Below, in pieces: positions 44,891-64,000 of a stretch of DNA of 64,000 bases. The position numbers and the translations under genes were made by a program. The notes beneath the pieces were generated by a model. That model was not told the origin of the DNA. It saw only the letters and a program-made list of their open reading frames with translations, and did not search any database. The DNA is from Candidatus Bathyarchaeia archaeon (lineage in GTDB: Archaea > Thermoproteota > Bathyarchaeia > 40CM-2-53-6), in NCBI GenBank assembly GCA_050013255.1, contig JBEKFP010000001.1, positions 1,280,001 through 1,344,000 of the forward strand, read 5' to 3'. Within the stretch, counting starts at the first letter, position 1, and every line of letters begins with the position of its first letter.

Positions 44891-44899
44891 TTGCTAGGC

Positions 44900-46641: not shown

Positions 46642-46658
46642 TGGCGCGCACACACATT
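46642..46658 (+). repeat. Half copy of the hairpin repeat
   Basis: tggcgcgcacacacatt. Confidence 0.5.
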
Positions 46659-46710
46659 ATCGAAAAACTCTTGTCTAACCGTGCACGTATACTCACCTCA
46701 GTCTTCCTTC

Positions 46711-49305
46711 ATGAAGACTTCTCGGAAATGGACCGCTGCGCTAATCATAATTGTATTGATTGTGGGTATTGTAGTCGCGACCACGTATCTCACGCGTCGA
46801 CCAGCACCTTCAATTTCAGTTGCGCCAACAACCTTCGTCACTGAACAGGGAACAGCGATAACGTTCACCGTATTCGGAGTTGAGTCTAACGGAATGGCGA
46901 CAGTCTATTTTGGTGATGGCCACGAAGCGAACACAACCTCCACCGTATCCTACGCTTACCCTAATCCAGGTCGGTATCTGGTGGCGGCTCAGGAGTTCGT
47001 TAACGGTCAACCTGTGTCCTCAACGTTCAACGCCCTGCAAACCATTCAGGTCACACCGCGGGTCAGCGAATCCCTTGCCCCGTTGATTTCTGTGCCTGCA
47101 GTAGCCTTCGACATTGCCAGGAACCCTTCTGCTCCAGTTGTTCGGGTAGGTGATAACGTAATCCTGTACGGTGGCTTCCTTCAACCACCAACTGGAACCA
47201 ACATGACCATCACCCGGTACGAGTGGGACTTTGGTAACGGAGCCACCAAAACCGTTCCCGCGAACAGGACCTCATTCAACCCTGCCAATAACCCGACAAC
47301 AACGTACACTCAAGCCGGCCTATACCCGGTTACATTGACGCTGGTAACTGAAAATTCAACAAGCATGGCAACATACCGGACTTCGATCGAGCAGACAGTT
47401 GCGGTTGGTTCCGGATCTCAGCCTTATACTGTGTTCTTGTATGCAGGTATCGTGCCGAACCCATCCATCATAAACGTGGCTGAAAACTGGGCCGGCGGCC
47501 CATTCTCCTTCGACCCTCAGATAGATGCTGAGGCTAACGGCGTCGAAATTGAACTTAACATATTCAGCACTCTACTCATGTACAATGGTTCATCCACTAC
47601 CCAATTCATCCCAGTGGCTGCAGCTCAAGTTCCATCCGTGGCTAACGGAGGTATATCGTCGGACTACACGAGCTACAGGTTCCAAATCAGAACCGGCCTG
47701 AAATTCTCGAATGGTGACCCGCTTACAGCATACGATGTTTGGTTCTCGATGGTAAGGGACATGCTGTTCGTTGGCGGCAGTCCAACAACTCAAGGGTGGA
47801 TTCTGGCCCAATACCTCATTCCGGGAGCATCCGCAGGCGTACCCGTCATGACCGTTCCCAACGATACAGCCGACTTCAACGCAATCTTGAACGCGTTGAC
47901 CTACAGCAACTCATCAAACACAGTAACCTTCAGGCTTATGCGCCCAACAGCATCGCAACTGTTCTTTACGTCACTTGTTCTTTACGGCGCTAGCATCGTT
48001 GACGCCACTTGGTTGAATGGGGTAGGCGCTGGGATAACGTTCACGCCTGCCGGCTTCTACGCTTACCAGAACCAAGGCAATCAGGGAAGCTACAATTTGA
48101 AGGCTCAGTGGACTCCGGTCGCTTCAGGCCCCTACATGATTCAGAGCTACGCTCCAGGGCAGTCAGTTACACTCGTTTCGAATCCTGGATTCCCAGGAGT
48201 CCCAGGCATTCCCGTCGTGAACAACACGGTGGTGATTCAATGGGTCAACGATCCTGAAACGGCATATAACCTGTTCACGAGTGGGCAGGCCGACATAGTC
48301 TCAGGTCTACCGACGGACTACCTTGCACTCATACCAAAGCAAATTGCAAACGGAAAAGCGGCCATGTATCAAACGCCACCACTTAATTGCAACGCTTTCG
48401 ATTTCAATCTTGACATCAATGTAACCAACATGAAGACTGTTTTCGGACCGCAGTACCACGTTCCCCCGGACTATTTCGCTAACCTTGACGTGAGGGAGGC
48501 GTTCGCTTACGCCTTCAACTACACCAACTACGTTGACGAAATATTAGGAAACCGAAAGTACGGGATAGATTTCGGAAGCAGTTATGCAGGGGTCATTGTA
48601 CCGGGCCTACCAGACTACGTACCGCCAAGCCAATTGCAGAATGTTCCCACATACGACCTGGCAAAAGCCAAGCAACTCTTGCAGCAATCAGGCGAATACG
48701 GGACCTCGATCAACATTCCGGTAGGCAACTGGGCCGGTGACACTAACAGTTTCGCCGGAGCGCAGATGTGGGCTGCTGCCCTAAACTCGATTGACCCGAA
48801 CATAGTAATGACCCCTGTCTACATTAGAAACGGTAACATGGGCGTTCCCGGCCAGAATCCGATTCCAATCATGGAGGCAACGTGGGGGGCGGATTACCCT
48901 TATCCGTCGGACTTCGTCGATGCATTTTACAAACAGGGAGGCTATTACCCGGCTCCGAACAGCTGGGCTGTGAACCAATTCAATTTGACAGGCCATGCTC
49001 AGCAGGCTACGATGTTCGCCCAGATGAATTCATTAATCCAGATAGCAGACTCAACAACAAACGCCACCTTGGCAGCTCAGGATTACAAGGCGGCGGAGCA
49101 AATAGCGATCAACCTCTACATGTACGTTTACACAGTCGACCCCAACTATTTCTGGGTCGCTCAGCCATACATGAATGGGTACCAGGGGCAGATCTCGTAC
49201 GAAGAGAATCCGATGCTCGGAGGCTACCTATTGGGAGTGTACTTTTGGTGGGTTAAGACCTGCGGCTCCGTCCAAGCTTGTTCCGGCCGAAACGTAGGCC
49301 CCTAG
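46711..49305 (+). CDS. Family 5 ABC solute-binding protein with two PKD domains (no adjacent permease)
   Basis: N-terminal TM; YFGDG and WDFGNG PKD motifs; KFSNGDPLTAYDV, SGPY, VREAF. Confidence 0.88.
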   Translation: MKTSRKWTAALIIIVLIVGIVVATTYLTRRPAPSISVAPTTFVTEQGTAITFTVFGVESNGMATVYFGDGHEANTTSTVSYAYPNPGRYLVAAQEFVNGQPVSSTFNALQTIQVTPRVSESLAPLISVPAVAFDIARNPSAPVVRVGDNVILYGGFLQPPTGTNMTITRYEWDFGNGATKTVPANRTSFNPANNPTTTYTQAGLYPVTLTLVTENSTSMATYRTSIEQTVAVGSGSQPYTVFLYAGIVPNPSIINVAENWAGGPFSFDPQIDAEANGVEIELNIFSTLLMYNGSSTTQFIPVAAAQVPSVANGGISSDYTSYRFQIRTGLKFSNGDPLTAYDVWFSMVRDMLFVGGSPTTQGWILAQYLIPGASAGVPVMTVPNDTADFNAILNALTYSNSSNTVTFRLMRPTASQLFFTSLVLYGASIVDATWLNGVGAGITFTPAGFYAYQNQGNQGSYNLKAQWTPVASGPYMIQSYAPGQSVTLVSNPGFPGVPGIPVVNNTVVIQWVNDPETAYNLFTSGQADIVSGLPTDYLALIPKQIANGKAAMYQTPPLNCNAFDFNLDINVTNMKTVFGPQYHVPPDYFANLDVREAFAYAFNYTNYVDEILGNRKYGIDFGSSYAGVIVPGLPDYVPPSQLQNVPTYDLAKAKQLLQQSGEYGTSINIPVGNWAGDTNSFAGAQMWAAALNSIDPNIVMTPVYIRNGNMGVPGQNPIPIMEATWGADYPYPSDFVDAFYKQGGYYPAPNSWAVNQFNLTGHAQQATMFAQMNSLIQIADSTTNATLAAQDYKAAEQIAINLYMYVYTVDPNYFWVAQPYMNGYQGQISYEENPMLGGYLLGVYFWWVKTCGSVQACSGRNVGP

Positions 49306-49440
49306 TAAGAGAACTTATTGCTTGAGCGACTGATGAGTCGTTCATTCTTCGCTCAGACTTCGATTTTCGTGTGCGTATTCTATGGCGTCGTAGTGGGCGG
49401 GCGTCGTAATTTGAACCGTCGTACGTCGTCGTTTGGAAAA

Positions 49441-49473
49441 GTGTGTGTGCGCACCAGCCTACCCACACACACA
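49441..49473 (-). repeat. Hairpin repeat, copy 3 (inverted)
   Basis: Reverse complement tgtgtgtgtgggtaggctggtgcgcacacacac. Confidence 0.85.
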
Positions 49474-49500
49474 GAACGAAGGGAAAGATAGACAAACCGC

Positions 49501-50202
49501 CTACTCTTCGAGCGTGACTTCGAAATTGTCTCCGACTCTGAGTGCGTGCCAGTGTCCGTCGTAGTCCACGCCTCTCATACTCCTTATCCTGATCAGATTT
49601 CTAGCAGGGTTACTCGCTTCATCAAGTTTGACATCAATGATGCCGTCTACGGCGGCTTCAAAGTTCCTGTATACCCAATTGCTGTGAAGATTGGTGATGA
49701 TACCTTCGATTGTCGTCGATTGCGTCATCGGGCTACTGGCGAAACCTCTGGTGAGAGCGTACTCGACCCATGCTTTTTCATCATTGAACCTGGCCATATT
49801 TGAGAAATTATCCATTATTCTCAAGTATTCGGGTCGTGGAGGGCCTTCCATGAAAGACCGCATCATTTCAATGCTCATGTCGGCCACCTTCAACGAATCT
49901 ACGCTGAGTTTTTCTTTGGATTTCCTTCCTAAAGTACACGTGTACCAATCCCAGATTCTTAGCCTATCGTTCCGTTCGAGTTCCTCGACATTCAATCCAA
50001 GCCGTTTGAGATTGGAGCGTACCGAGACCGGCGGTTGACCACATATCGTGCAACTGGCAACCCCTCCTGACTTTATCCATCCCGCCGTGATCGTTAACAC
50101 GACACTGTACCACAATGATGCAGGATCATATTCCACCAGTATGTTATATCCGGGCGGTACAGGTCCCTTAGTCAAGTCTTCGATTAACGGAATCCTCGGC
50201 AA
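49501..50202 (-). CDS. KaiC/RAD55-like protein with degenerate Walker A
   Basis: IPLIEDLTKGPVP, YDPASLWY at the P-loop position, VDGIID, IRSMRG. Confidence 0.8.
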   Translation of the reverse strand: MPRIPLIEDLTKGPVPPGYNILVEYDPASLWYSVVLTITAGWIKSGGVASCTICGQPPVSVRSNLKRLGLNVEELERNDRLRIWDWYTCTLGRKSKEKLSVDSLKVADMSIEMMRSFMEGPPRPEYLRIMDNFSNMARFNDEKAWVEYALTRGFASSPMTQSTTIEGIITNLHSNWVYRNFEAAVDGIIDVKLDEASNPARNLIRIRSMRGVDYDGHWHALRVGDNFEVTLEE

Positions 50203-50242
50203 TCAGAACACACGAGAGTCCTCTGTTCTAGCAGATTTGTAG

Positions 50243-50290
50243 TTTTCGTGTGTGTGTGGGTCTAATGGTGCGCACACACACACACACTTT
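50243..50290 (+). repeat. Hairpin repeat, copy 4
   Basis: ttttcgtgtgtgtgtgggtctaatggtgcgcacacacacacacacttt. Confidence 0.85.
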
Positions 50291-50553
50291 GAAACGGTTG
50301 GAGTAGGTATTTGTGGTTAGGGGAAGTGTCGCCTAACAAGCCCTCCGGCCGGATGCACGGAATCCGACTCCCGAAAGATCCCTCTCCAGACCCGGCCGCA
50401 TGTGTCATTTGGCAGAAATCCAGCCGGAACCGGACTTTGCGCACTAATGGAACCAATAGGACGGAAGAATCTTCAGTTCAAATTTGGTCGTCCGCACCAT
50501 TGGTACCATCACACTAAACGAACGACAAACATTGGTTCGATTACTACATCAAG

Positions 50554-51363
50554 TCAACGCTGTGTTTGCGCTCGCTTGCCCCTCCACCGGTGGTAAAGCG
50601 AGACGCATGCAGTGATGACGACTGAGTAACCGAGCAATTGTGAAACTGTTTTGCCAGTCGTGTTGTATAAGAAATAATGGCACGACAAGTAGATGGACTG
50701 CAAGTCAACGAAGTTTGTAGCATTAAGTGAAATATCATCGAAATACACTTTTCCACCTTCGGCGCTCTCCAACATAATGCGATTTATGTGAGGGTCAAAG
50801 AAATCTGGAAGATACCTTTCCATCAGTTTTGATATATCCACCGAAATATGTACCCATGAGTTCTCGGGCTCGCGATTGAACTGCAAGTAAATGCCGCCGA
50901 TATCTACGCCCGGATTTGGTTCGAAAACTGCTGCTAGGTCTTCAGTGTTATCGGGCGTAACAGTAATGTCGACATAATATGTTGGACCATTTGTAGTTGG
51001 CAGAAAATAGAGATGAAAAAGCGCCTGTGGTTCTTTCCCTCCTCCACTCGCATTCAAGAGAGTGTAGAAGCCTAACTGCATGCTAGGGAAAATGGATACG
51101 GGATCGAGTTTCTGAAGAAAGCCCACGCCTCCTCCTGTCAAACGTAGACTGTGCGACCCAGTTCTGGAAACTGTACGCACTATGTCAACTCCACCACGGG
51201 CTAAAGGAGGCGGCCCGAGTTCCCAGCCCTTCATTCCATCCTCAAAACCTCCGTTTACCACCAAGTCTGTAGTCGAGGTTTTGCTTGCATAAATCGTAAA
51301 GAATGTTCCCAATAGCAACAGAATGATCATGAAGATCAGTATCATTCTGCTATGCTGAGTCAT
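50554..51363 (-). CDS. Membrane-anchored protein with CBM4/9-like domain
   Basis: LVVNGGFE...W...VYFDDISL; N- and C-terminal TM. Confidence 0.7.
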   Translation of the reverse strand: MTQHSRMILIFMIILLLLGTFFTIYASKTSTTDLVVNGGFEDGMKGWELGPPPLARGGVDIVRTVSRTGSHSLRLTGGGVGFLQKLDPVSIFPSMQLGFYTLLNASGGGKEPQALFHLYFLPTTNGPTYYVDITVTPDNTEDLAAVFEPNPGVDIGGIYLQFNREPENSWVHISVDISKLMERYLPDFFDPHINRIMLESAEGGKVYFDDISLNATNFVDLQSIYLSCHYFLYNTTGKTVSQLLGYSVVITACVSLYHRWRGKRAQTQR

Positions 51364-51655
51364 TTAGCAGACCTAGGTAAATGGAGGGCACAGACCCTTC
51401 CGTTTGCAACCGGCAGGCAACTACTGCCGTATGAAGTATGCCTAACGCTCGGTAATAATTCTGGTGCCAATTTCCATCGTAATTGTAGCCCCCACATAAA
51501 TCAAGGACGGTTCAAACCTGCCTTCCCGCACGAAGAGATTCACAGACACTGAAAATTGAACGAACGACGGCGGTTCATGTGAGTCTACTGCTGGAACGAA
51601 AAGAAAATCTAGTATCGCAAGTGATCCCCCCTTCACATTGAAAACGAGTGTGCAT

Positions 51656-53344
51656 CTATCTGTAGATCGCCATGAACGCGTCCTCCGGATGCCTTACGAG
51701 ACTTCTTCTATTGTCTGTTAGCAATCTTGTTGTAGTAGATTCGACGAAATCCGAACTCTTGAAGACATTTTTGTAATCAAAGAAGTTGTTGTGTGCCGTT
51801 GTGTACTCTTCGAAGTATGCATTGATTTCTGGAACCAACAGCAGCCACAATTTGGCTATCGCTGGCTTCAGCCGCAGACCTTGATCCTTGACACAGGCGA
51901 TTGGATCCCGCATAAATTTCATTCCCAATTCATCCTCGTTTAGGACCTTAGCAACGAGGTGAAGAAAGAAGAAATGAGCGAGACCGTAGTTCTGGATTTG
52001 CGGATTGTCAAGGCTCGACATATTGTACAGTATCGTCTTGTAGATTAGATAGGCGAAGTAAATCTTCGCAGCTGTTGTGTGCCTGGAAAAAATGTCGCTG
52101 TACCGTTCTCCGAAAAGTCTAGCCTTCAAGTGCGTATTTTGAGGATTCCCAAGATAAAATGCCTCGATCAGCTGTGCTGCCAAATCTAACTCAATGACGT
52201 CGGAATATCCTGCTTCGGATTCTCCTCTCTTTCTCTTGTAGAGCACATGGTTCCCTGTAAGTTCACTGAACTCGGTTTGGATTGCTTTGTGGACCCTGTC
52301 ATCCGCCTTGAGATCTTGCAACCTTATGGGATTCTGGTTGTTAGTGTAGTATGTAATCTCATTAACGAGCGAAGATGTCTGTTCTAGCCGGATTATTTTC
52401 GCAAGTAAATGCATGTTGTTCGTGATTTTGTTTCTGTTCTCGTAAAGTGCGAGCATTGACTGACAACCGTTGATAACAGAGTAGTTTCCCAAAATCAATG
52501 TTGAACCATTTTGTTCTAAGCTATCGCAGACCAATGTTATCCCATTGTGAAAGAGGAAGAATTTATCGTGCTTGGAGGTGTCTTCGATAGTTTTCTTGAT
52601 GTCTCTGTTCACACGGGTTCTGCCCAAGCCATATCTCACATTTCGGTAGAACAGAGTCTTGTCTTGTATCCCGTTCAGTTTCATAAGCTCGAGTGCGGGG
52701 ATGGCGTAAACCCTTGTGATCATGCCGCCAGGCAAATCATATTGGATCTTGGTGACATTTGTTAACTGTAAAGGAGTTGAACCTGTGGCAATTTCTGTAT
52801 CTGCGAAGTAGGTGTACTCTTTGAAAATATTGGGGAGATCGTGGCCTATCATTGCTCCCTCGTTTATCTTGAGAAATTCTTTAGCATCGATATTGAATAC
52901 TTTGTTCGTTACAAAGTGTGTGTATACAGGATACCCGTCGGAGATTCGTTCGAATACCTTTGTTGCCCTCACTAAGGCTTTCAGTTCCTCACTCGCTGTG
53001 CCACTTAGGAGGGCGTCGATAGTGGTTACGCTATTGAACCATTGCTTGGCTCCTACGAAATTTCTTAGGTCATTGTCGCCTTGGTCCCTTGCGTAATCGG
53101 GTGAAAATTTTGCCTGAAATAAGTGTACTTCTTCTTCATCTTCATCTGCATAGATGCCGTCAATTCCTTTGTCATTGGAGCTATCACACACTGCCGCAAT
53201 CGCATCCTCTTCTTCCAACCTGAAGAAGTTGCGTAGATACCACATAAGAAAAGATGCGCTCTCGGTTCTTCCTTCAGAATAATACCGCTCGACCTCAGTA
53301 CGCATTCTACTGTCAAAGCCTGGTTGGTCCAATCGACAACTCAT
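51656..53344 (-). CDS. AIPR family (abortive infection phage resistance) protein
   Basis: DKGIDG...FQAK N-terminal domain; NVRYGLG, FHNGIT, INGCQS, TNNQN. Confidence 0.92.
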   Translation of the reverse strand: MSCRLDQPGFDSRMRTEVERYYSEGRTESASFLMWYLRNFFRLEEEDAIAAVCDSSNDKGIDGIYADEDEEEVHLFQAKFSPDYARDQGDNDLRNFVGAKQWFNSVTTIDALLSGTASEELKALVRATKVFERISDGYPVYTHFVTNKVFNIDAKEFLKINEGAMIGHDLPNIFKEYTYFADTEIATGSTPLQLTNVTKIQYDLPGGMITRVYAIPALELMKLNGIQDKTLFYRNVRYGLGRTRVNRDIKKTIEDTSKHDKFFLFHNGITLVCDSLEQNGSTLILGNYSVINGCQSMLALYENRNKITNNMHLLAKIIRLEQTSSLVNEITYYTNNQNPIRLQDLKADDRVHKAIQTEFSELTGNHVLYKRKRGESEAGYSDVIELDLAAQLIEAFYLGNPQNTHLKARLFGERYSDIFSRHTTAAKIYFAYLIYKTILYNMSSLDNPQIQNYGLAHFFFLHLVAKVLNEDELGMKFMRDPIACVKDQGLRLKPAIAKLWLLLVPEINAYFEEYTTAHNNFFDYKNVFKSSDFVESTTTRLLTDNRRSLVRHPEDAFMAIYR

Positions 53345-53416
53345 CTCAGGAAGACGCGGTCTGATGTTTCATTTAGTACTTATGGAGTCGAAAACCAAGG
53401 GCTCCTTGTCGATCCG

Positions 53417-54640
53417 CTAGCCAGTATCTAGATGACCTAACTTCTCTCTAACCTTACGGCGAATCGTAAAAGAACTCCTGCCTCTGGCGTTCTTACGGAG
53501 GTAATGAAGAGTGCTCTTACCAATACCTAGCTCTGTCGCTTCCTTTTGAGTCAGCGAGAGAATTCTACGCCTGACCCCTATACCGTCCGACCTACTCAAA
53601 TCAACAAACGGCTGCGTGAAGTCGAGCAAACTTGCTTTTCCCACCAAGTGCCTGCTTAGCTCTGTAGCTTTGTGCTCGATAATCGTATCCCATTTGAACA
53701 CCTGCCCGTTGTACTTGACGCCGGAATTGAAGCGCTCTCTCAAAACATCAACAAACCTGATTTTCGCCGCCACATCAAAGTGATATCGATAATCGTCCCC
53801 TGTGAAATAGAAGCTTGGCAGATCTAGTATTCCTGACTCGAAAGCTTCGAACACTGAAGTGTCAATAAGCCATCGGAAAGGCTCCTCCAGGTCATAAACA
53901 AGTGACTGTTTGGTCTGATATGCACTGAATTCGTGCAAGAAGCCCGCAGATGGTTCAAGTCCGACAGTATTGATCGCACGTCTGCATTCCCCCTCCAAGA
54001 ATCCATAGCCGTAGTTCAATGCCAAGTTAACTGGATCAGACGCATTGTTCTGGTGGCTGGTAGTCATACGTCCATGAAAATCCAATGATTCTGGCAAAAC
54101 TTTGGCATACGCAAACCAATACTTTGTTGCTACACGTCCCTCAACTGAACGCAAATCCGCAACTGTGCGGGCGATACCAATCCGTGCGATTTCCTTCTTG
54201 GCAAGTTGCATCTCCTTTTCGATGTCGTAACGTTGTGCAAGCCAATCTAGCACCTGAAGACTTCGCGCAATCTTGGCCTGCACAATGCATTTCGCGATTG
54301 CATACTTCTTTGCAGGGTCTGCGCAGGCCCGGAACTGAGCCGCACGCAAATCAGCCTTAATGGGCATTGGCGGGAGAATACTCGAAATCAGGCTTCCGTC
54401 AAAGTTCAGTACGAAAACCGGAATCCGGTTCCGCGACAACCAGTGGAAAGCCTGCAGGGAAACGTATCCGCTATGCCCGTCTATGATTATGCTACTATGC
54501 CGGAACCGGCGCGGCCGGAATATGTACACGGATCCCGTCCGTCCATCTTCCCGGCCATCCGTAACCTCAAGCTCAGACCGGGACCGTAAATTCCGCACCC
54601 GGATCTTCACGCCCCAACCGGATAGGTGGAGTGGATTCAT
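53417..54640 (-). CDS. cas1: Cas1-solo integrase (casposase-like) with C-terminal HTH
   Basis: EGRVA..YW, NASDPVN..LNYGY, GFLH, LVYDLEEPFRWLID; C-terminal ATELGIGKSTLHYL; no cas2 or CRISPR array nearby. Confidence 0.92.
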   Translation of the reverse strand: MNPLHLSGWGVKIRVRNLRSRSELEVTDGREDGRTGSVYIFRPRRFRHSSIIIDGHSGYVSLQAFHWLSRNRIPVFVLNFDGSLISSILPPMPIKADLRAAQFRACADPAKKYAIAKCIVQAKIARSLQVLDWLAQRYDIEKEMQLAKKEIARIGIARTVADLRSVEGRVATKYWFAYAKVLPESLDFHGRMTTSHQNNASDPVNLALNYGYGFLEGECRRAINTVGLEPSAGFLHEFSAYQTKQSLVYDLEEPFRWLIDTSVFEAFESGILDLPSFYFTGDDYRYHFDVAAKIRFVDVLRERFNSGVKYNGQVFKWDTIIEHKATELSRHLVGKASLLDFTQPFVDLSRSDGIGVRRRILSLTQKEATELGIGKSTLHYLRKNARGRSSFTIRRKVREKLGHLDTG

Positions 54641-55641
54641 CTTTGATCCTCCAGATCAAGAGCGGATAATAATGCGTAGCTGTCTTCGCGAAGCCATCCT
54701 CGGATCTCATTGAAGATGTCCCCGCGTTCTGACCACAGCTTCTCCAACCTATCCAAATCAGCCCAAGGCTTGGCCATATGATTGAACACAATCTTCCGCC
54801 CTACCCCTGTGAGTCGATTGATGTGCTTTGACGCCCCACGCGATAGTCTCCACCACACTTGGAAATCTGCAGATCGAAGGAAATCCAAAACCTCTACAAC
54901 CAACCGCATGTAACGTTTCGCCAGCTCGGGGTTCGACCAAGCCAAATCAATGAGCTCCAATATACTCTGCTTCGATTGCGCGCGAGCTTTGACTGTCGCC
55001 TCCGCGTGGAAGTCAACGAAGTGAGCAAAGGCCTTGAGAATAGCTTCGCGAACAGGTGTTCGAGAAATCATTTCGTCCGCTTCAAGCAAACGCTGCGCCA
55101 GATCGTCTTCAGAAGCCTGCTCAATGTTGAGACCCTTGTGAGATAATTCTCTTAACACTGCGAGAAGTCGATTCTTTCCATCAATTGGTTGCAGAAACAG
55201 GACCAACATTGTCTGCGCCAAGTTTGCGTGTAAGACACAAGTTCTGATCAGTGAGGGAAAGGTCTTCGATTGAAGGATCTTGGGAAAGGCTGCACAAAGA
55301 ATAACACCTTTGTCGGTGAGAGTATAGCTGAACCTTTTGACTCGCTTCTCACTGGTTTCCTGCCTTCGACGAAGTAATCCAAGGTCATGGAGGAGCGGGA
55401 GCACTCTTCGTCTGGTTTCTCCTCCGACCTGATAGTCCTTCACGAGGAGGTAATTGTTGACCTTGCCATTTTCAGCCGCAACCAAAACAACTGCAAGAGT
55501 TGCATGGAGACCCTTCTTGACCATAGGGTCGTAGGCTGGGCTCCTGAAGTTCAGGCTAGGAAACAGCATGAGTAACTCAGGATCTGCCCGAGCCGCATCC
55601 TTCTGCATTCTTCTAAAATCTAGCTGAGCCTTTGTTCCCAT
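54637..55641 (-). CDS. Hypothetical protein with N-terminal wHTH
   Basis: LHDLGLL...YTLTDKG; ATGA overlap with cas1. Confidence 0.7.
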   Translation of the reverse strand: MGTKAQLDFRRMQKDAARADPELLMLFPSLNFRSPAYDPMVKKGLHATLAVVLVAAENGKVNNYLLVKDYQVGGETRRRVLPLLHDLGLLRRRQETSEKRVKRFSYTLTDKGVILCAAFPKILQSKTFPSLIRTCVLHANLAQTMLVLFLQPIDGKNRLLAVLRELSHKGLNIEQASEDDLAQRLLEADEMISRTPVREAILKAFAHFVDFHAEATVKARAQSKQSILELIDLAWSNPELAKRYMRLVVEVLDFLRSADFQVWWRLSRGASKHINRLTGVGRKIVFNHMAKPWADLDRLEKLWSERGDIFNEIRGWLREDSYALLSALDLEDQR

Positions 55642-55679
55642 TATACTGTCAGTCTCCTATGCTGTCAGTTGACAGTATA
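55642..55679. promoter_or_regulatory. Nested inverted repeats in a divergent promoter (putative operator)
   Basis: TATACTGTCA...TGACAGTATA and inner CTGTCA-GT-TGACAG. Confidence 0.55.
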
Positions 55680-55741
55680 CTGCCCGTACTTCATGACATA
55701 AACTTCGCCTTTTGCTAGACTTCACGTGAGGTCAAGAGTAA

Positions 55742-56110
55742 ATGAAGATGGTTCGATCGTATAGTATGACTGTCAGCAACACATGGTATGACAAAGAGGC
55801 GGGGGGAGCGAAAGAATACGAGTTGCACTTTACCGTCGCAAGACGAGGCAGCATCAAGACAGTTCGTCGAAGGTTAGCCCGTAGAGGAGTTCCATACTTT
55901 CAAAACTACGTCTACGGCCGCGTGAAAAAGTGGATTCCTAGGAAGAATGTCAAAGTCCGCTTCGAGCGCGAGGAACCCGCTGCGAAAAGTGAAGGGAAGA
56001 TCAGCATCGAGGGTCGGAACATGTTGTTCCGGGGGAGGCGATGGTGGGCGTACCCACTCGGCAAGTTGCAGTTGAGCTACGCGAAAAGGAGGCGAAAACG
56101 AGGTGCGTAA
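55742..56110 (+). CDS. Basic hypothetical protein
   Basis: Arg/Lys-rich; overlaps the next gene. Confidence 0.65.
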   Translation: MKMVRSYSMTVSNTWYDKEAGGAKEYELHFTVARRGSIKTVRRRLARRGVPYFQNYVYGRVKKWIPRKNVKVRFEREEPAAKSEGKISIEGRNMLFRGRRWWAYPLGKLQLSYAKRRRKRGA

Positions 56111-56468
56111 CGTAAACGTCCTAAAGGTCGATAAGGACTGCGTGGTACCGGAGAACTGGATTCAGGATTACATATCGGTAGTTTTGACCGTCTGCAAGTG
56201 GTTCGGAGTTTCGGTCATATCGATCGGGGCTTGCAAGAGTCGCATGAAGGGCCTTCACTTCTACATCGAAATAGCACCATCTGTCGAACCGGAAGTTGCC
56301 AACCGTCTTCAATGGCTCATAGGCGACGACTGCCAGCGCGTGGACTTCAACCGGGCCCGCATAGAATCAGGACTTGATTGTTGGAATAAATTGTTTGAAG
56401 TCGCCGGCAGAAGGTTGCGAACAATCTACGGAACCCAACAGCATTCGCTGAGAAACACCGCGTATTGA
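56103..56468 (+). CDS. Minimal AEP primase-like protein (putative)
   Basis: KVDKD (DxD), SRMKGLHFY and GDD occur in AEP motif I-II-III order. Confidence 0.5.
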   Translation: MRNVNVLKVDKDCVVPENWIQDYISVVLTVCKWFGVSVISIGACKSRMKGLHFYIEIAPSVEPEVANRLQWLIGDDCQRVDFNRARIESGLDCWNKLFEVAGRRLRTIYGTQQHSLRNTAY

Positions 56469-56489
56469 CTGACAGGACTAGCGAGTCGT

Positions 56490-57611
56490 ATGAAGACTTC
56501 GAAGTCTCGTAACTCTCGTAACCTTAATGTCAAACCATCTAGACCTGGTGTGAACTTCAAGTTACGCAAATTACATGCCCCTGCGTCCAAGAAAAATTAC
56601 GCCGTCAGGCTTGAAGAGTATTACAACAAGAAGTTCGGGCAGGTAGTAACACCCGTCGCAATTCTGAAAACCCTCGCTGTAATCAGCTCCACCTTCAAGG
56701 GTAACGTTAAACTCTGGATTTTGAACGTCGCTCCCTCCCGGCATCTGAAAACCCAGACCACCCAAGAACAGGCTCAAATCTTTCCGAAGGGCAAGGTCGT
56801 TTACCTCGGATCAGACTTCACGATTCACGGACTCATACGAGACTATGATTCAGGACGCGAGATCAACAACAAGTGCCTTCTCATAAATGACATGACCCTG
56901 TTGCTCGCGAGTAAAGCAAAGCAGACGAAAGCTAGGTTGATCGATGCTTTATCGGAGCTTGCGAGTGAAGGAAAATACATCTATTCAGATTTCCAACACA
57001 CCTATGAAGTCAAGGCCCGCTTTGGTTTCATCGCGAACATTACTCCTCACTCGTTTCTGGTGAACCGGAACAACATGCTCGGCAACACCTTCACTGAACG
57101 CTGCCTAGTAGTGTACCATTGGTTAACAGATGCAGAGATGAGTGAAGGAAATCTTTCGCGGGCAAACCGGACGAGCATGCGAATAGAACGGTTCAAGCAG
57201 ACGATTACGGAAGCTGAGGTCAAAGTGACAGATGAGGACCTAGTGCGATTCGACGAGTACGCAAAGCGATGGCGAATCTTGGGCAGTTACTCAAGTTCAA
57301 GCAGCCTCTTCGACATGATTAAGTCGATGGCAACTGCGCATGCCATTCTAAGCGGTCGCAAGAAAATCACTCACAGCGTGTACAGATTCCTCGATATGAT
57401 TGAGCCTTACTTGAGGAACCCGAGCGAGAATGTGAAGTTGAAGATTCTTGAGCTTGCGCATCAGGGAAGGTCCATTCGCGATATTTGTAATATCCTTGAC
57501 AAGAAGTACGAGAAGTACCGCCCATTCGTTTCAAAGGTAATCTGGCAGTACCGCAAGAGAGGCGTGTTGTCCCCAAACACCTTCGAGAAAAAGGAACTTT
57601 TCGATAGATAG
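56490..57611 (+). CDS. AAA+/MCM-like helicase with C-terminal HTH (putative)
   Basis: Divergent Walker A APSRHLKT, Walker B LLIND, FIANIT, ER finger; RSIRDIC HTH. Confidence 0.6.
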   Translation: MKTSKSRNSRNLNVKPSRPGVNFKLRKLHAPASKKNYAVRLEEYYNKKFGQVVTPVAILKTLAVISSTFKGNVKLWILNVAPSRHLKTQTTQEQAQIFPKGKVVYLGSDFTIHGLIRDYDSGREINNKCLLINDMTLLLASKAKQTKARLIDALSELASEGKYIYSDFQHTYEVKARFGFIANITPHSFLVNRNNMLGNTFTERCLVVYHWLTDAEMSEGNLSRANRTSMRIERFKQTITEAEVKVTDEDLVRFDEYAKRWRILGSYSSSSSLFDMIKSMATAHAILSGRKKITHSVYRFLDMIEPYLRNPSENVKLKILELAHQGRSIRDICNILDKKYEKYRPFVSKVIWQYRKRGVLSPNTFEKKELFDR

Positions 57612-57781
57612 AAAGGCGATAAGGAACTGAACGAAAATGTAGATTGAAAGTACCGTTGCGCGATATCCAACCAAATTCTGCGTAGTTACCCAATTTTCGC
57701 GCAATGAAATTTAATGTATCATTAATAGGACATAAACTTAAAGCGTGCTTTAGCATAACGTATAAGGAGAATTAAACCGAT

Positions 57782-58825
57782 ATGCGATATGTTCTAGACG
57801 TTCCAACAACGCTCGCCGATGAAATCAACAGACTGGTCGCGGCTGGCAAATACAAGACTCCACAAGACTTCATGCTACTTGGCATTCAAAATCAAGTGTA
57901 TCTCGAAACACAGTCAATCGAGTCGGAATCCGTTTCCGCCCAATCTCTAAGAGTGCACCCAAAACCGATCATGGGACCAGTTGATGCTGATGAATTTCTG
58001 TCCATGAACATCGATGGTGTGAAAACTGTTGAACTTAGCGAGCTGAAAAGGCAAGACGTTCTTTGGGGTCAGTACAACAGATTCTTGCCTGTCAAGATCG
58101 TAGTAAGAGTCGCGGCAAACCTTCTCAGAAGAAATGCGTCAGAGTATGTGTTGCTCTCCGATGTTCATGAAATAGCTGCGGCGACGGCTCGTCGCCTTGG
58201 CAAAGAAACTGCTAGAAATGATAAGCTGCTCGGACACAAAAGGGGCACAATAATATCCGCAGGATTGCCAATGGGCAAGGAGGACAAGTCGGCATCTCGA
58301 TTCAAGTATCAATTCGTTGGCTATGCTACTGCAGATAAGATGGAAGGTGCCGCACCTGTCCTGAAGTTTGTCGATATCACAAAGAAGGAGGGCACGGTTC
58401 TTCTAGGAATCACGGATTACGGGTTGAAGTTTGCTTCGTTTAGCAATCCTGTCATCGACAACCATGACTTCTCCTCTCCTATGTCTGAAGAGGAAGTGAA
58501 TTTTCTCCTCAATCACATTGCTCTCCAGGTCCCGGGCGAAGCAAGGCTCATCCACTTCATTCTTGATAGCGTGAACAAAGGACGCAAGACTCCTGAAGCA
58601 TTGAACGATAATATTAGGGCTGAATACGGGACGGTCTGGAAGGGCAAGAATGAACAAGCAACGATGCGATCTGGTGCAGTGAGCCGAATGAGTGAACTTG
58701 GTCTTCTCAAACGCGAGAAGGACGGAGTCAAGGTCACATATCTATTGACAGAGCGTGGGCGACAGTATCTGAATCGTCTTAAGGAGACCGGAGCTCCGAA
58801 GGTGGAGATCAAGCAATGGCCGTAA
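57782..58825 (+). CDS. Hypothetical protein with RHH-like N-terminus and wHTH C-terminus
   Basis: EINRLVAAGKYKT; SRMSELGLL...YLLTERG. Confidence 0.7.
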   Translation: MRYVLDVPTTLADEINRLVAAGKYKTPQDFMLLGIQNQVYLETQSIESESVSAQSLRVHPKPIMGPVDADEFLSMNIDGVKTVELSELKRQDVLWGQYNRFLPVKIVVRVAANLLRRNASEYVLLSDVHEIAAATARRLGKETARNDKLLGHKRGTIISAGLPMGKEDKSASRFKYQFVGYATADKMEGAAPVLKFVDITKKEGTVLLGITDYGLKFASFSNPVIDNHDFSSPMSEEEVNFLLNHIALQVPGEARLIHFILDSVNKGRKTPEALNDNIRAEYGTVWKGKNEQATMRSGAVSRMSELGLLKREKDGVKVTYLLTERGRQYLNRLKETGAPKVEIKQWP

Positions 58826-59928
58826 GCCTGACTGCTTGTTCTTGCTCGTCCTCCTTTGACCTGATGATTTGTGCAAAGTGTGGAGGAACGCTATCAACCA
58901 ACACAATGCTTTCGAGACTTGACGATGGAACGCTACAATGGTTTTCTGAACTCGATTCAGACGGGCGACTTTCCTTTGCGCTTGCGAATTATGCGTCAAT
59001 CGATCGGCAAATCCGTCGAGGAATCCCAGCGACTACCATGCTTCAGACTCTGAAGGATACTATTTCCGGGCCAGGTGGCTTAACGGAAGAGATCGAAAAC
59101 AAGATCACCAAGAGATTCGAGGAGCTGCGTTGCGAGAACGAGAACTCCACAAAGCTTCTCAGGGAAATAGTAGTGGAGCAAGTGGGCGCAATCGTTGGAG
59201 AAATCAAGGGGTTAGTCGAACAGGGCAAATCCATTACAGACATCGAATCAAGGGTCAGGGAGGCGACGGGAGCTCTTCAGACGTATCTGACAGCTATTCG
59301 CATTCCTGCGCTTAAGGGGGAGGAGGGAGAGGTAAATGCGATTCGAGACCTTCAAGAGGCATTCATCGGACAGACATGTTTCAAGGTGGAGCCGATCGGT
59401 GGAGCTGATGCAACTGATGCAATCATCCACTTTCACCAAGCAGGAATCGAAATCGGCAGCTGCCTCGTGGAAGTGAAGTCCAGAAATAGTTGGAGCAATG
59501 ATTTTGTCGAGCAAGTCAGAGCCGATATGAAACGTTACGACGTTGCGCTGGCGATACTCGCTACCAACAAACTCCCAAAGTCCGCGAAAGGTAGAGGTTT
59601 TCGAGTCGACGGTGATTTCGGCCTGGTGGTTATCGCAAGCTCCGAGATGATCGTCCCAACCGTGAGCATGTATTACGAGATCTCTCTATCTACTCACAAT
59701 ATCCACAAGCACAACCTCGATCTAAAGTCAATAGCCGCCAATCGAGACCTGAGCTTCTATCTTAATGACAACATGAAGATACTCGCGATCTGCAAGCAAA
59801 TCTCCGATGCAACAGATGACTCAGCCCGCATAATCAAAGGGCATTTAGTGGACATCAGTTCGAGGCTACGAGAAAACAACGGTAAGATCGCATGCATACT
59901 GTCGGCCTCTACACGGGAGAGTCACTGA
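58816..59928 (+). CDS. Coiled-coil plus PD-(D/E)xK nuclease (DUF2130-like)
   Basis: KGEEGE...TDAII...VEVKS. Confidence 0.7.
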   Translation: MAVSLTACSCSSSFDLMICAKCGGTLSTNTMLSRLDDGTLQWFSELDSDGRLSFALANYASIDRQIRRGIPATTMLQTLKDTISGPGGLTEEIENKITKRFEELRCENENSTKLLREIVVEQVGAIVGEIKGLVEQGKSITDIESRVREATGALQTYLTAIRIPALKGEEGEVNAIRDLQEAFIGQTCFKVEPIGGADATDAIIHFHQAGIEIGSCLVEVKSRNSWSNDFVEQVRADMKRYDVALAILATNKLPKSAKGRGFRVDGDFGLVVIASSEMIVPTVSMYYEISLSTHNIHKHNLDLKSIAANRDLSFYLNDNMKILAICKQISDATDDSARIIKGHLVDISSRLRENNGKIACILSASTRESH

Positions 59929-59932
59929 TCAA

Positions 59933-60304
59933 ATGAATCGGAAAACAACAGTAACAGGCAACGTTCCTAATGGTAACCCCTTTGAAAAGGGCCGTAGATT
60001 CGAATACAGGACAAGAAGTCACCTTTCGCGCCTCGGATGGTTTGTTATCAGGCAACCTCGCTCTGCATCACCCGATCTACTCGCTTTGAGAAAGGGCATT
60101 ATCTTGTTAGTCGAATGCAAAATCCGCGGATACATACCTCCGAAACAGCGCCGACGCATGATGCGATTGACGAAGAGCAACCCCGGCGCTAAAGCAGTGC
60201 TCGCAATGAAAAGCGAAAACGGACTTCTTTTTCGGGAATTATCACGTCGGTCATCAAGATATGATAAGCCGTTTGACCCCGATCCGGGGAAAACGTTAGC
60301 GTAA
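59933..60304 (+). CDS. Hjc-like Holliday junction resolvase/nuclease
   Basis: KGRRFE...PDLLA...VECK. Confidence 0.8.
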   Translation: MNRKTTVTGNVPNGNPFEKGRRFEYRTRSHLSRLGWFVIRQPRSASPDLLALRKGIILLVECKIRGYIPPKQRRRMMRLTKSNPGAKAVLAMKSENGLLFRELSRRSSRYDKPFDPDPGKTLA

Positions 60305-60321
60305 CTAGATGTGAAAAGGAA

Positions 60322-60999
60322 TTGGGACAGGCACCACCAGAAAGATCCGTGGCTAAGGAAGCTGCGCTTCGAAAAGTCTGTAAGCCTTTCGGATGGGAGA
60401 AGTACCAAAATATCGATTTAAACAGGTTAGCAGCTTACGCAATTCATATGCTCGCACGCAAAAGCGTCCTTGTGACTTTCGAGAATGTTGTTGTCGCGCT
60501 CTTTATCATGTTCCCTAGGAAATTCTGTTTGCCAGTCTACGAACACTACCCAGACTCAAGTCGGGTAAACCGAGCTCTTCTGCAATTGCGTCCCAAGTAT
60601 CGAAATTGGGCAACCGGGTCCCCGGTGAGGGGATTCAAGCTCACATCAACTGGAATTGCTATAGCTGAGGATACAGCGAAAGCTCTAACGAATCCTGCTC
60701 CCTTATCTAAGGAACCTCCCCGCATGATAAAGCCCCGAACGTTCTCTCCACAACTTGAGATTGAAAATCGGGTGCTTAATCGTGAAATCTTTTCTAAGTA
60801 CGACAAGAATCAAGTAGACCAAATAGATGGTATGGAAGTTCTCGAGCTCCTTCGAGCGGTGCCTCACACACCTCCCAACATACTGAGAGGTCATCTCCGT
60901 GAACTTGAGAACATAGCCAAGGAAGCGCACAGCACAACAGCACTGGAGTTTCTCAGGTTCTTGCGACACCAATTCTCGTCTCTATTCGAGGAGAGTTGA
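60322..60999 (+). CDS. Hypothetical protein upstream of the GHKL ATPase
   Basis: wHTH-like FKLTSTG; 3 nt from the next gene. Confidence 0.7.
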   Translation: MGQAPPERSVAKEAALRKVCKPFGWEKYQNIDLNRLAAYAIHMLARKSVLVTFENVVVALFIMFPRKFCLPVYEHYPDSSRVNRALLQLRPKYRNWATGSPVRGFKLTSTGIAIAEDTAKALTNPAPLSKEPPRMIKPRTFSPQLEIENRVLNREIFSKYDKNQVDQIDGMEVLELLRAVPHTPPNILRGHLRELENIAKEAHSTTALEFLRFLRHQFSSLFEES

Positions 61000-61002
61000 A
61001 AG

Positions 61003-63255
61003 ATGGTAGAAATTGAAGTTAAGGACAGTGCAAGATTCATTCGGAGGCACATGAACAAGGCTCTACGACGCAGCTATCTGAAGGCACTCACTGAACCCAT
61101 CACAAATAGTGACGACAGTTATGGAAGGATCGAGAAGTCATCCCCATCTGATTTGTCACCCAAAATCATTCGAGTATATGCCTCCCCGAGAAAGAAGCAA
61201 TTCGATGTTCTAGATCTCGCTGAGGGGATTTCAAACGAAGAAATGATCAATCTATTCAGAGAATACGGTGAAGAAAAAAGAACCCACGAAATGGGAGGAC
61301 GAGGTATCTTCGGACAAGGATTGTCTGATGTACTATTTAGTAGAGAAGAGGGGGGATGGGTTCACTCAGTTAAAGATGAAGTCTATTCGGTAGCTCAGTT
61401 CAAATGGAAGAAAAAGAAAGAGAACGGAGTTTTGAAAGAACGTCGCATAATAAGAGTGCCCGGGGCAACTCGCGCGGACAGAGGAGCTAGAGAGCGTTTG
61501 AGACTACCAGAGCATAGTGGTACAGTCGTGTCATTCAAGTTCACTGAGGCTCCCTTCCCAGCTAAGGAAATACTCATTCAACGCCTATCGCAGTTTCACA
61601 TGCTTCGACTGATAAACTCGAACTCGCGTCGCAAAATCATCGTGCATTATGCTGATGAAAATGAAGAGGAAGAGCATGAGATTCGATATGAGTTTCCGCA
61701 GGGGAAGCTCATCGGGAATCTTGCAACAACCATGAAATACGATGGCGTTGACATCTCAATTGGAGGGGAGCTGTATAGATCCGACGAGCCTCTCCTTCAA
61801 AGAGAAGCGGGTGAGGATAGGCAGGGAGGGTTACTTGTCTTTGATGAAGAAGCTAGCGTTCTCGACTTGACACTCTTTGGCTATGATGAAGACCCTTTGG
61901 CGGTGCGGTTCTGGGGAAGATTGAGCCTAAAGGGCGCCCGAACCCTAGTCAGAAAGAAACTCCAAGAGCAGGACGAAATCCTTACTGAGACTCGAGATGG
62001 CTTTGTTAAGACTCACGGATTCTACGCCAAGCTAAAGCCCATCGTAGATGAGTGGTTGAAACCCTTTATCGAAGCAGAGAGAGCGAGAATCAGTCAGCAA
62101 GAATCTGCCCTCACCGAGAAGACGCACCAGGAGCATCGCAAAGCGTTCCAGATGCTTAGCGAACTGAATAGAGAGATCAACCAAGATGTTACCATCTTGT
62201 CACCTGGCACAGGAGAGGGTGGCACTGAGGAGAAACCAAAAAACGGTATAGAATTCGCCAATGAAAATTTGACGCTGCGGAAAGGCGTGAGGTATTCTGT
62301 CCAACTTCGTGTTGATGCTCGTGTGATATCTCCTGGAACGATCATCAAAATAACATCTCAAAATCCGAGCCTAAAAGTCAAACCTCGTAAACATATCGTG
62401 ACTCCACTTGCTGCTTTGCCCGATGACGAAATTGACAGAAAACGCATCATACTCTCTTGCGACTCCGTTGGAGTCAATACAAAGGTCCAGGCCAAGGCAA
62501 AGAGCCATCGAGCGGAACTAACTGCCCTCGTGGTGGAAATACCACGTTCGGAGGAGTTACCTAAGATAGTCACATTGGAACAACCCTTGGAGTTTCGACC
62601 GAGCTCGGCTCGCAGAAAGCCAGGTGCGTCCGGAACACTGCATCTGTTCATTGATAGAGAGCGGATTCCCAAAGCATCTTCAGTTCTGTTCAGTTGCAGC
62701 AATGACCGGATCAGGTTGCAATCAACAACGGTCTCCGTTTCTGCAGGAAGTGTGATCTCTGATAAAGTATCAAGAATCGATATGAACTTCGTCGGTTACA
62801 GCGAGGGGCAGACTGGCGTTGTTAAAGCGGCATGCGGTGAATGCTTTGCTGAAGCAACTGTGAAGATTACCTCGGCAGAAGGATTTGGTGATCTGTTCGT
62901 CGATTGGGATTATAGAGAAATTCACGCTGTCTTCCAAGCATATTTCGAGAAAGAGACTGGACTTGTGATTCTTAACTCAACACATCCGGTCAACAAACAG
63001 TATTTCGGAACGGATAAACCACAGGCTCATCTTGCAGTGGAAAATCAGCCACATTGTCAAATGCTCCTAGCTACCTTGATCCTCGATGTGTGTCTATGGT
63101 ACATCTACAGCGAAGCTTACAAGAACAACAGACTCGAACTTACAGACTGGTGGGAAATACAAAGATACATCGAAGAGGGAAAGCACAGGCTTGGAAAGGA
63201 ATTCATGTCTAGGTTTCTGAAACAGCCAGTTTTTGCGCAGGCTCACGAAGCCTAA
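61003..63255 (+). CDS. GHKL (MORC/Hsp90-like) ATPase with beta-rich C-terminal domains
   Basis: Bergerat motifs EPITNSDD, DLAEG, GRGIFGQG, GT. Confidence 0.8.
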   Translation: MVEIEVKDSARFIRRHMNKALRRSYLKALTEPITNSDDSYGRIEKSSPSDLSPKIIRVYASPRKKQFDVLDLAEGISNEEMINLFREYGEEKRTHEMGGRGIFGQGLSDVLFSREEGGWVHSVKDEVYSVAQFKWKKKKENGVLKERRIIRVPGATRADRGARERLRLPEHSGTVVSFKFTEAPFPAKEILIQRLSQFHMLRLINSNSRRKIIVHYADENEEEEHEIRYEFPQGKLIGNLATTMKYDGVDISIGGELYRSDEPLLQREAGEDRQGGLLVFDEEASVLDLTLFGYDEDPLAVRFWGRLSLKGARTLVRKKLQEQDEILTETRDGFVKTHGFYAKLKPIVDEWLKPFIEAERARISQQESALTEKTHQEHRKAFQMLSELNREINQDVTILSPGTGEGGTEEKPKNGIEFANENLTLRKGVRYSVQLRVDARVISPGTIIKITSQNPSLKVKPRKHIVTPLAALPDDEIDRKRIILSCDSVGVNTKVQAKAKSHRAELTALVVEIPRSEELPKIVTLEQPLEFRPSSARRKPGASGTLHLFIDRERIPKASSVLFSCSNDRIRLQSTTVSVSAGSVISDKVSRIDMNFVGYSEGQTGVVKAACGECFAEATVKITSAEGFGDLFVDWDYREIHAVFQAYFEKETGLVILNSTHPVNKQYFGTDKPQAHLAVENQPHCQMLLATLILDVCLWYIYSEAYKNNRLELTDWWEIQRYIEEGKHRLGKEFMSRFLKQPVFAQAHEA

Positions 63256-64000
63256 TTGTCGAAACTATTACCGGGTAAGACAGTTTCTTCTCTCGCTGCA
63301 ACCAGTTTTGCTCTGAAAACATGTCAGTAACGGCTATCTTGCGATCGTAGGAGATGTTTCTCTTTGAGTAGATCCACATTGTACGACTTTCTCCCTTCAA
63401 GATTGATCTGAGTTCACGGAGTGTAACGACCTTCACCAGCGTTTCAATACCATATTTCGACAGGGGGGGTTTACTCAGTTGTTTTCTAGCTTTAGTCTCC
63501 ATCAACCTTCTGCTTCTTTTCGAGGATTCGCTCCCTACTATCAAGTGGATGTCCTCTGCAGTTATCTTGTAACCTGGTGCCTTTGGCGAGAGGGGGCGCT
63601 CAACAGCTACCGCGAATCTGGTATTCGACATCGCATATTTGCCCATTGATCTCACCAGCATACGCGGTAACTTGATCAACCTGAGTTTTCGTATGTTTGA
63701 TTCGAAATTCGCGGTTTCCTTTGCGTCTATTTGTCGGAGTTCAGATCTTACTTCTCGTCTAATTGTCTTGTAGAAATTTCTGACGTACTTCCTTTGGACC
63801 TCGAATCCAGTAGACATACGACCCATACACTCCGCAGTTGCAAGAACTATCCCGGAACCGGCAAATGGATCTAGAACGATGTCATCAGGATCCGTGGTAA
63901 GTAGCAGCATTCTGCGAACCAACTCTACGGGAAATGGACAGAGATGGTAATGATTCAGCTTATTGTGGCGCCAGGATCCTTGAACTGGAATGCCGATTTT
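63209..64000 (-). CDS. N4/N6 DNA methyltransferase (5' part beyond window)
   Basis: HLCPFPVELVRR, VLDPFAGSG; frame open to the window edge. Confidence 0.88.
   Translation of the reverse strand, partial: KIGIPVQGSWRHNKLNHYHLCPFPVELVRRMLLLTTDPDDIVLDPFAGSGIVLATAECMGRMSTGFEVQRKYVRNFYKTIRREVRSELRQIDAKETANFESNIRKLRLIKLPRMLVRSMGKYAMSNTRFAVAVERPLSPKAPGYKITAEDIHLIVGSESSKRSRRLMETKARKQLSKPPLSKYGIETLVKVVTLRELRSILKGESRTMWIYSKRNISYDRKIAVTDMFSEQNWLQREKKLSYPVIVSTIRLREPAQKLAVSET

Follow-up and report, generated by a model that had tools for sequence, protein, structure and literature searches.

The locus described here lies in a 64,000-nucleotide window of a Bathyarchaeia genome (G000:C1:1280001-1344000; positions beyond 64000 continue the window numbering along the contig, and those relatives of the genome that have a name belong to Bathyarchaeia). 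It is occupied by a casposon-like element with a compact gene core (Table 1): a Cas1 casposase and an overlapping regulator gene on the minus strand, and a divergent operon of three open reading frames (ORFs), which encode a basic protein (ORF122), a small protein with motifs of archaeo-eukaryotic primases (AEPs; ORF121) and an MCM-type AAA+ ATPase (ORF373). An earlier note on the window had recognised the Cas1 and the divergent operon, and all five ORFs are found at the stated positions. It had also proposed that the element continues past 64000, that its right terminus could lie outside the window and that its ends be sought by terminal inverted repeats (TIRs) and a target-site duplication (TSD). 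Extension of the contig bears this out: the complete element spans 16,283 bp, from 50273 to 66555 (G000:C1:1346555), its right end lying 2.5 kb past the window end, and has a GC content of 0.47 against 0.50 for the genome.

Table 1. Features of the element and its borders, in window numbering
Feature	Coordinates	Strand	Evidence or remark
TSD, left copy	50259..50272	-	identical to 66556-66569; 14 bp, 5' CGCA as in M. mazei
Element, part within the window	50273..64000	.	runs on to 66555
Left TIR, begins with (CA)n tip	50273..50405	+	82% identity to right TIR
Internal degenerate landing pad (T-loop mimic, 14-mer and CA tip)	50476..50526	+	
ORF269, weak carbohydrate-binding domain match, between the two internal pads	50554..51363	-	
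Second internal degenerate landing pad	51510..51569	+	
AIPR/AbiU-like defence protein, 562 aa	51656..53344	-	PF10592 E 3e-37; PADLOC AbiU E 1e-43
cas1, casposase, 407 aa, family-2-type with C-terminal helix-turn-helix (HTH)	53417..54640	-	PF01867, 6OPM, tree
ORF334, putative winged-helix regulator, 334 aa, stop overlaps cas1 start	54637..55641	-	PadR E 0.03
ORF122, basic, pI 11.3, predicted partner subunit of ORF121	55742..56110	+	complex prediction; 62/64 loci
ORF121, putative minimal AEP-like catalytic module	56103..56468	+	motifs, lipothrixvirus homologues
ORF373, MCM-type AAA+ core and C-terminal HTH, without MCM N-terminal domains	56490..57611	+	
Cargo operon: ORF347 (weak PaaX-type HTH), DUF2130 protein, Hjc-like nuclease, ORF225, GHKL-ATPase-like ORF750	57782..63255	+	
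N6/N4 DNA methyltransferase, 459 aa	63209..64588	-	PF01555 E 3e-43; start past window
DndB/DpdB-like gene	64585..66372	-	past window
Right TIR	66424..66555		past window
TSD, right copy	66556..66569		past window
tRNA T-loop mimic, leader half of target	66570..66586	-	past window

The element is real and complete, with defined ends. Its TIRs are 82% identical across 132 columns and are abutted on both sides by an exact 14-bp direct repeat, the TSD. Read on the minus strand, the duplicated 14-mer starts with CGCA and is preceded by a T-loop-like motif at tRNA spacing, which agrees with the target rule of family-2 casposases: the M. mazei casposase uses a 14-bp TSD with a 5' CGCA and requires upstream tRNA bases (PMC4779613, PMC6977970), and the A. 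boonei casposon target comprises the TSD plus the T-loop (PMC5137440). Applied as a positive control to MetFor-C1, our TSD finder yields the same target and TSD pattern. The target here is a mimic of a tRNA 3' end and no tRNA gene; the relatives G136, L179, L189 and L210 occupy intact 3' ends of tRNA type. No empty site was found in 22 genomes of the same genus searched with either flank, the flanks being non-syntenic.

The Cas1 protein matches PF01867 (E 7e-49). Among solved structures the M. mazei casposase 6OPM is nearest (E 4e-74), in an alignment that covers residues 4-402 and takes in the C-terminal HTH; the next-best structure reaches E 6e-24, with CRISPR Cas1s far behind. The active site predicted from the alignment keeps all four residues, E167, H236, D250 and E253, unlike that of Cas1-solo group 1. 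In an IQ-TREE phylogeny rooted on CRISPR Cas1s, from which long or partial rows were removed and which holds no verified references of families 1, 3 and 4, casposases and CRISPR Cas1s split at 100/100 with the window protein on the casposase side; a cas2-like ORF adjoins cas1 in 23 of the 30 loci in the outgroup. A search of the whole G000 genome recovered neither cas2 nor a CRISPR-like array. The intact, HTH-tailed Cas1 of the earlier note, and the lack of cas2 and of an array that it had reported for the window, are thereby confirmed, and the phylogeny that it had proposed as a check groups the protein with casposases, away from CRISPR-associated clades. Judged by its sequence, this Cas1 is a family-2-type casposase with its catalytic residues intact. 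Its residues 197-198 are His-Gln and, in the alignment to 6OPM, stand opposite two Arg that are probably the pair reading CGCA in the M. mazei enzyme, though the motif is the same. The adjoining ORF334 takes the position of the HTH gene in family-2 casposons of the MetFor-C1 and MetPsy-C1 layout, without a sequence match to their HTH protein.

What sets the element apart is its lack of a family B polymerase (PolB). The definition of casposons includes self-synthesis by an element-encoded polymerase (PMC4046053), which here would depend on the activity of ORF121 and ORF122. No PolB was detected between the element ends with PF00136 or with a hidden Markov model (HMM) of PolBs from the family-2 casposons MetFor and MetPsy; the latter was used as well because casposon PolBs match PF00136 only faintly, and it detects PolB in L090, L145 and L146. 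The three PF00136 matches in the genome all lie on contig C2. The absence that the earlier note saw in the window thus holds for the whole element; its caveat that a PolB could lie outside the window falls away, none being present between 64000 and 66555. The 112-aa and 213-aa core proteins of MetFor and MetPsy, which served to test for the HNH gene and the second HTH gene, have no tblastn match in G000 and do match L090. Two PolB candidates in relatives were discarded: in L083 a PolB-like motif falls outside the reading frame and escapes the casposon-PolB HMM, and the PolB in L086 is a host enzyme (96% identical to that of G000) outside the cassette.

The gene order and the Cas1 tree suggest how this state arose. 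In MetFor-C1 and MetPsy-C1 the HTH gene runs into the start of cas1, with the PolB operon pointing away from the HTH gene; the ORF122-ORF121-ATPase operon occupies that slot here. The Cas1s of module-bearing elements and of module-less relatives form a clade of 21 rows (support 100/99), whose sister group (100/97) includes the Bathyarchaeia casposon L054/L090 with a family-2 PolB and HNH-like and 213-aa genes; the MetFor and MetPsy Cas1s branch further out. As PolB is present on two successive outgroups, we infer its loss or replacement, and PolB has most likely been displaced in this lineage. In keeping with this, one complete element, L217, has a 106-aa remnant matching the PolB C-terminus downstream of its ATPase (E 1e-12; a single case). 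We also observe that Pfam recognises no PolB near the casposases P0205 (L111) and P0337 (L113), so that Cas1-solo elements without PolB may be widespread outside the module-carrying group as well.

ORF121 shows, in the order typical of AEPs, a DxD motif, an S-x-x-x-G-x-H motif and an acidic third motif (motifs I, II and III). Across 118 homologues D12, G50, H52, D76 and R79 are invariant, D10 and D75 are each kept in 117, and position 46 is Ser in 112 and Thr in 6. Its structural model (predicted local distance difference test, pLDDT, 85) is a single RRM-like module, the Pfam AEP-TOTE family is matched by 16 of the 118 members (best E 2.5e-4), and its structural neighbours in the Atlas are LigD/AEP-TOTE proteins (TM 0.51-0.58). 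Profile searches of PDB sequences with ORF121, ORF122 and ORF373 returned nothing meaningful. These lines pointing to an AEP are consistent though individually weak, and ORF121 alone amounts to about half an AEP core. The DxD / S..G.H / GDD motifs that the earlier note read in the 121-aa protein are thus real and near-invariant; its description of the protein as primase-like stands on the motifs and the AEP-family matches, with the reservation that the protein is about half a core and that its PDB fold matches are weak.

ORF121 corresponds to only about half of an AEP core, and ORF122 is nearly always the gene before it; the pair was therefore tested by complex prediction. The predicted complex scores 0.86 (best control 0.00). 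Of 80 solved complexes 58 attain the mark used, as do 2 of 110 mismatched pairs, with the caveat that halves of split genes can pass through resemblance to solved structures. Contacts agree at least 98% between runs, the partner has a pLDDT of at least 90, and the nearest contacts link the conserved KLFE and FERE segments. The model supports a predicted binding of ORF121 to ORF122 and suggests a split primase. ORF122 itself has no Pfam or PHROG family; a match as a single-stranded DNA-binding protein was too weak (E 0.04) to be trusted.

ORF373 (model pLDDT 89) has MCM complexes as all its top 50 Foldseek matches. In VIA comparisons it reaches Z 18-19 with MCMs (MCM8/9: Z 18.7, root-mean-square deviation 3.6, 250 aligned), 12.7 with the SCCmec protein Cch and 8.6-9.4 with MuB/TnsC; a role as a MuB/TnsC-type regulator was ranked low, at about half the Z of MCM. 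Its neighbours in the Atlas are ATPase domains of Prim-Pol- and Toprim-helicase fusions. The Walker A K87, sensor 1 N183 and Arg finger R204 are invariant; the AAA+ core begins at about residue 30, and the N-terminal OB and Zn domains of MCMs are absent. Foldseek and VIA thus both assign the MCM-like protein that the earlier note placed at 56490 to a helicase-clade fold. Its model is consistent with a protein that works like an MCM without being a member of the MCM family, and helicase activity would follow from that fold.

Outside such elements, homologues of ORF121 are found in lipothrixviruses: AFV1 ORF144, AFV2 ORF116 and ORF267a of the betalipothrixvirus AFV3 (hhalign probability 94%, E 1e-7; Foldseek E 2e-6, TM 0.65), which share its motifs. 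These are uncharacterised proteins of filamentous archaeal viruses, in a viral setting without cas1; the literature that we could search, most subscription papers falling outside it, gives no function for AFV1 ORF144. No homologue of ORF122 or of the ATPase is detectable in AFV1 or AFV3, and comparisons of ORF122 with AFV1 ORF166, with AFV3 ORF267a and with the gene preceding the G008 homologue of ORF121 detected no match. The G008 homologue is a distant one (E 2e-15) on L232 (G008:C15), a virus-like 10.8-kb Bathyarchaeia contig with a virion structural PHROG match and without cas1. A scan of IMG/VR with ORF121 and a phage tblastn search with an ATPase found nothing. On these sequence relationships, a viral source of ORF121 is plausible.

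The element lineage is conserved across several Bathyarchaeia families. The ORF121 family occurs in 15 of 401 sampled Bathyarchaeia genomes, most intact copies lying 1-4 kb from a divergent cas1, and about a dozen genome loci join the module to a divergent cas1; among 301 genomes of the phylum, a single weak match lies outside the class. We further collected 80 metagenome loci, chosen by ORF121; they are not independent, several being from the same sites. A divergent cas1 is present in all 31 of those with at least 4.5 kb upstream; ORF122 lies upstream of the AEP-like gene in 62 of the 64 with at least 600 bp upstream, and an ATPase is present in all 25 with both flanks, the HMM recognising 21 of these and inspection assigning the other 4 to a further subtype. 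An exact 14-bp TSD and inverted tips mark 15 distinct complete elements, 8.4-16.3 kb long. No intact PolB occurs in any of them, and four lie at intact tRNA-type ends, one being that of tRNA-Glu. The same layout recurs in dozens of loci at 56-70% Cas1 identity. The four core genes are under purifying selection, as their median dN/dS values indicate: 0.11 (cas1), 0.19 (AEP-like gene), 0.14 (ORF122) and 0.08 (ATPase, from just 7 pairs). Pairwise comparisons are descriptive, since the pairs lack independence; in them Cas1 identity correlates modestly with that of ORF121 and of ORF122 (rho 0.38 and 0.44), while these two correlate more closely with each other (0.62). The ATPase does not track Cas1 (rho 0.07; median ATPase identity 30%) and gene order varies, which suggests that the ATPase is exchanged between elements.

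Several known systems are comparable. Like the family-2 casposons (MetMaz, MetFor-C1, MetPsy-C1 and AciBoo-C1; PMC4046053, PMC4779613, PMC6977970), the element has TIRs, a casposase with a C-terminal HTH and an intact active site, a 14-bp TSD starting with CGCA after a tRNA T-loop motif, a cas1 start overlapped by an HTH gene with an operon in divergent orientation, defence cargo that varies, and tandem stacking. Unlike them, it has no PolB, HNH or 213-aa core gene, the divergent operon being ORF122-AEP-like-ATPase; the tips in its group are short (CA)n, (CGA)n or poly-C, and many targets are tRNA-end mimics rather than tRNA genes. The primase-helicase replicons of archaeal plasmids, integrated elements and viruses (PMC5862659; MetMaz1FA1A3-E1, PMC4779613; SCCmec Cch, PDB 5DGK) likewise pair an AEP-type protein with an MCM-like AAA+ ATPase in a mobile setting. 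However, their integrases differ (MetMaz1FA1A3-E1 has a tyrosine recombinase) and their AEPs are longer or fused, whereas here Cas1 serves as the integrase and an AEP-like chain of about 110 aa has a separate basic partner. A link of AEPs to Cas1 or to transposon excision is seen in CAPP, the Cas1-binding primase-polymerases (PMC8211822), and in IEE, an AEP plus helicase (PMC9943667); these are full-size bacterial Prim-Pols in CRISPR-Cas1-Cas2 operons or with IS629, in no TIR-bounded Cas1 element. In the literature that was searchable, we found no description of a casposon that lacks PolB or comes from Bathyarchaeia. The element integrates like a family-2 casposon and departs from family 2 in PolB and HNH; we consider it a candidate new casposon family.

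We lean towards the view that this Bathyarchaeia element descends from family-2-type casposons and that a virus- or plasmid-type primase-helicase module, which replicates the element, has taken over the place of the PolB operon. On the biochemistry of family 2, the casposase would join the (CA)n tips to a target made of the T-loop motif and the CGCA-starting 14-mer. After excision, the MCM-type ATPase would open or unwind the element DNA, ORF121 and ORF122 would jointly form a two-chain AEP for priming, and the primers would probably be extended by host polymerases; the casposase would then reintegrate the copies, defence-type genes riding as cargo. A precedent is M. mazei MetMaz-C1, for which in vivo excision, tandem insertion and mini-casposon movement are reported and a circular intermediate is hypothesised (PMC10359463). 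That the ATPase and the two-chain AEP replicate the excised element with host polymerases we rate as rather probable from the sequences and models. Several observations weigh against this view. Close relatives without the module move or persist (the G000:C3 element, and L088 with an exact TSD), and the module is therefore not strictly required in cis. In the ATPase subtype of the window, Walker B is non-canonical (LINDM) and the sensor-2 Arg is missing, and since the N-terminal MCM domains are also absent, its helicase activity is putative; a third ATPase subtype has a canonical Walker B. As ORF122 has no detectable homologue, calling it the missing AEP half is a guess on its fold. For ORF121, the top PDB match in Foldseek is the LigD polymerase at only E 0.013, with HUH/Y1 transposases among the tied matches, and its VIA Z of about 5 for PrimPols (ASFV, African swine fever virus, PrimPol: Z 5.2, root-mean-square deviation 3.8, 99 aligned) is below that of generic ferredoxin-like folds.

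Some of these points feed other explanations. The AEP-like pair and the ATPase could be accessories of transposition, filling the 14-nt gap, rejoining the donor or assisting excision in a cut-and-paste element that is not self-synthesizing. AEPs that serve excision or Cas1 integration are known from IEE (PMC9943667) and CAPP (PMC8211822), the AEP module is minimal and tightly linked to cas1, and neither an origin nor a circle was seen; yet by its fold the ATPase belongs with the replicative MCMs and is similar to domains found in primase-helicase fusions, the module sits in the PolB position, and homologues of ORF121 occur in viruses without cas1, all of which makes an accessory role, the main rival reading, rather unlikely. 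We hold it decidedly improbable that ORF121 is some other metal-dependent enzyme of RRM or ferredoxin fold (e.g. a nicking or end-processing enzyme shared with linear archaeal viruses), with the ATPase as a loader or target-selection regulator: the order and near-invariance of the motifs, the AEP families as best named matches in Pfam, the Atlas and Foldseek, and the MuB/TnsC Z at about half that of MCM speak against it, while the weak PDB fold scores, the tied HUH/Y1 matches and the uncharacterised state of the viral homologues speak in its favour. That a decayed PolB-less casposon received a plasmid or virus fragment by chance might be suggested by the stacked insertions around the element and its heterogeneous cargo, but such a mosaic is barely credible and is refuted by a layout kept in dozens of loci and 15 complete elements, by purifying selection, and by a divergence that excludes one recent clone. 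Of the new Cas1-mobilised element with primase-helicase replication that the earlier note proposed, the element and its module are borne out, and none of the note's three refuting outcomes came about: PolB is missing within the terminal repeats, Cas1 falls among the casposases, and the two ORFs show AEP motifs with AEP-family matches and a helicase-clade fold; the replication remains at the level of inference.

The cargo is mostly defence-like: the AIPR/AbiU protein, the Hjc-like nuclease, the GHKL-type ATPase, the methyltransferase and the DndB/DpdB-like protein. The two internal pads flank ORF269, which suggests that cargo is gained by nested casposase insertion. The G000 genome has 49 sites made of a T-loop mimic or end tip, a CGCA 14-mer and an end tip (0, 0 and 0 in order-3 Markov controls), and they lie in clusters, 30 of 46 gaps measuring 6 kb or less where a mean of 5.4 such gaps is expected; the cassettes between them are mostly 0.6-3 kb long. 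A third identical copy of the 14-bp TSD at 44023-44036 delimits a Cas1-less 6.2-kb unit (44023-50272) in tandem with the element, itself split by tip-14mer-tip junctions at 44860 and 49450. The KaiC-like cassette of 795 bp that adjoins the element (49464-50258) has paralogues elsewhere in G000 and recurs end-to-end (84%) in G236 (L238) between different 14-mers, which supports, at the sequence level, the movement of enzyme-less cassettes as units.

Further traces of this kind are present in the same genome and its relatives. A second casposase element in G000 (G000:C3:228079-237121; L003) has a casposase (60% identical), HNH and a TIR-domain-like ORF, without PolB or the module; its ends are CCG repeats with inverted and non-identical 14-mers, and a similar complete 7.1-kb element lies in L088. 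G000 also holds a Cas1-less region (G000:C1:39212-42249) that opens with an approximately 200-bp copy of the element's left end (83%), and a lone fragment of a casposase C-terminus (G000:C3:171692-171887; 42 aa, 60%) near a landing-pad-like sequence. The landing pad past the right end of the element (L001:18587-18636; L101) is double-headed, its other side being a copy of a tRNA-Leu 3' end; at the orthologous position G275 has a full tRNA-Leu gene. Further copies of this pad's short repeat lie 1 kb and 6 kb beyond it, and L088 has several; they may be att sites of another system.

Taken more broadly, these elements might form a class of self-replicating Cas1 transposons with a tiny two-chain AEP shared with filamentous archaeal viruses and an interchangeable MCM-like ATPase, whose casposase also moves enzyme-less cassettes into stacked arrays at tRNA-end mimics that it spread itself; we offer this wider picture tentatively and with some doubt. 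If it is true, the ORF121 family would be a candidate replication protein of AFV1-like viruses, which offers a function to test for lipothrixvirus proteins lacking characterisation, and ORF121 and ORF122 would be a candidate minimal split primase. The earlier note had seen relevance to the origin of CRISPR adaptation; as a derived branch of family-2 type, the element bears more on the plasticity of casposons. It would mean that integration by Cas1 and replication are modules that can be separated and exchanged, which would lift one constraint assumed for the element from which CRISPR obtained Cas1 and would make it testable what the polymerase of a casposon is for.

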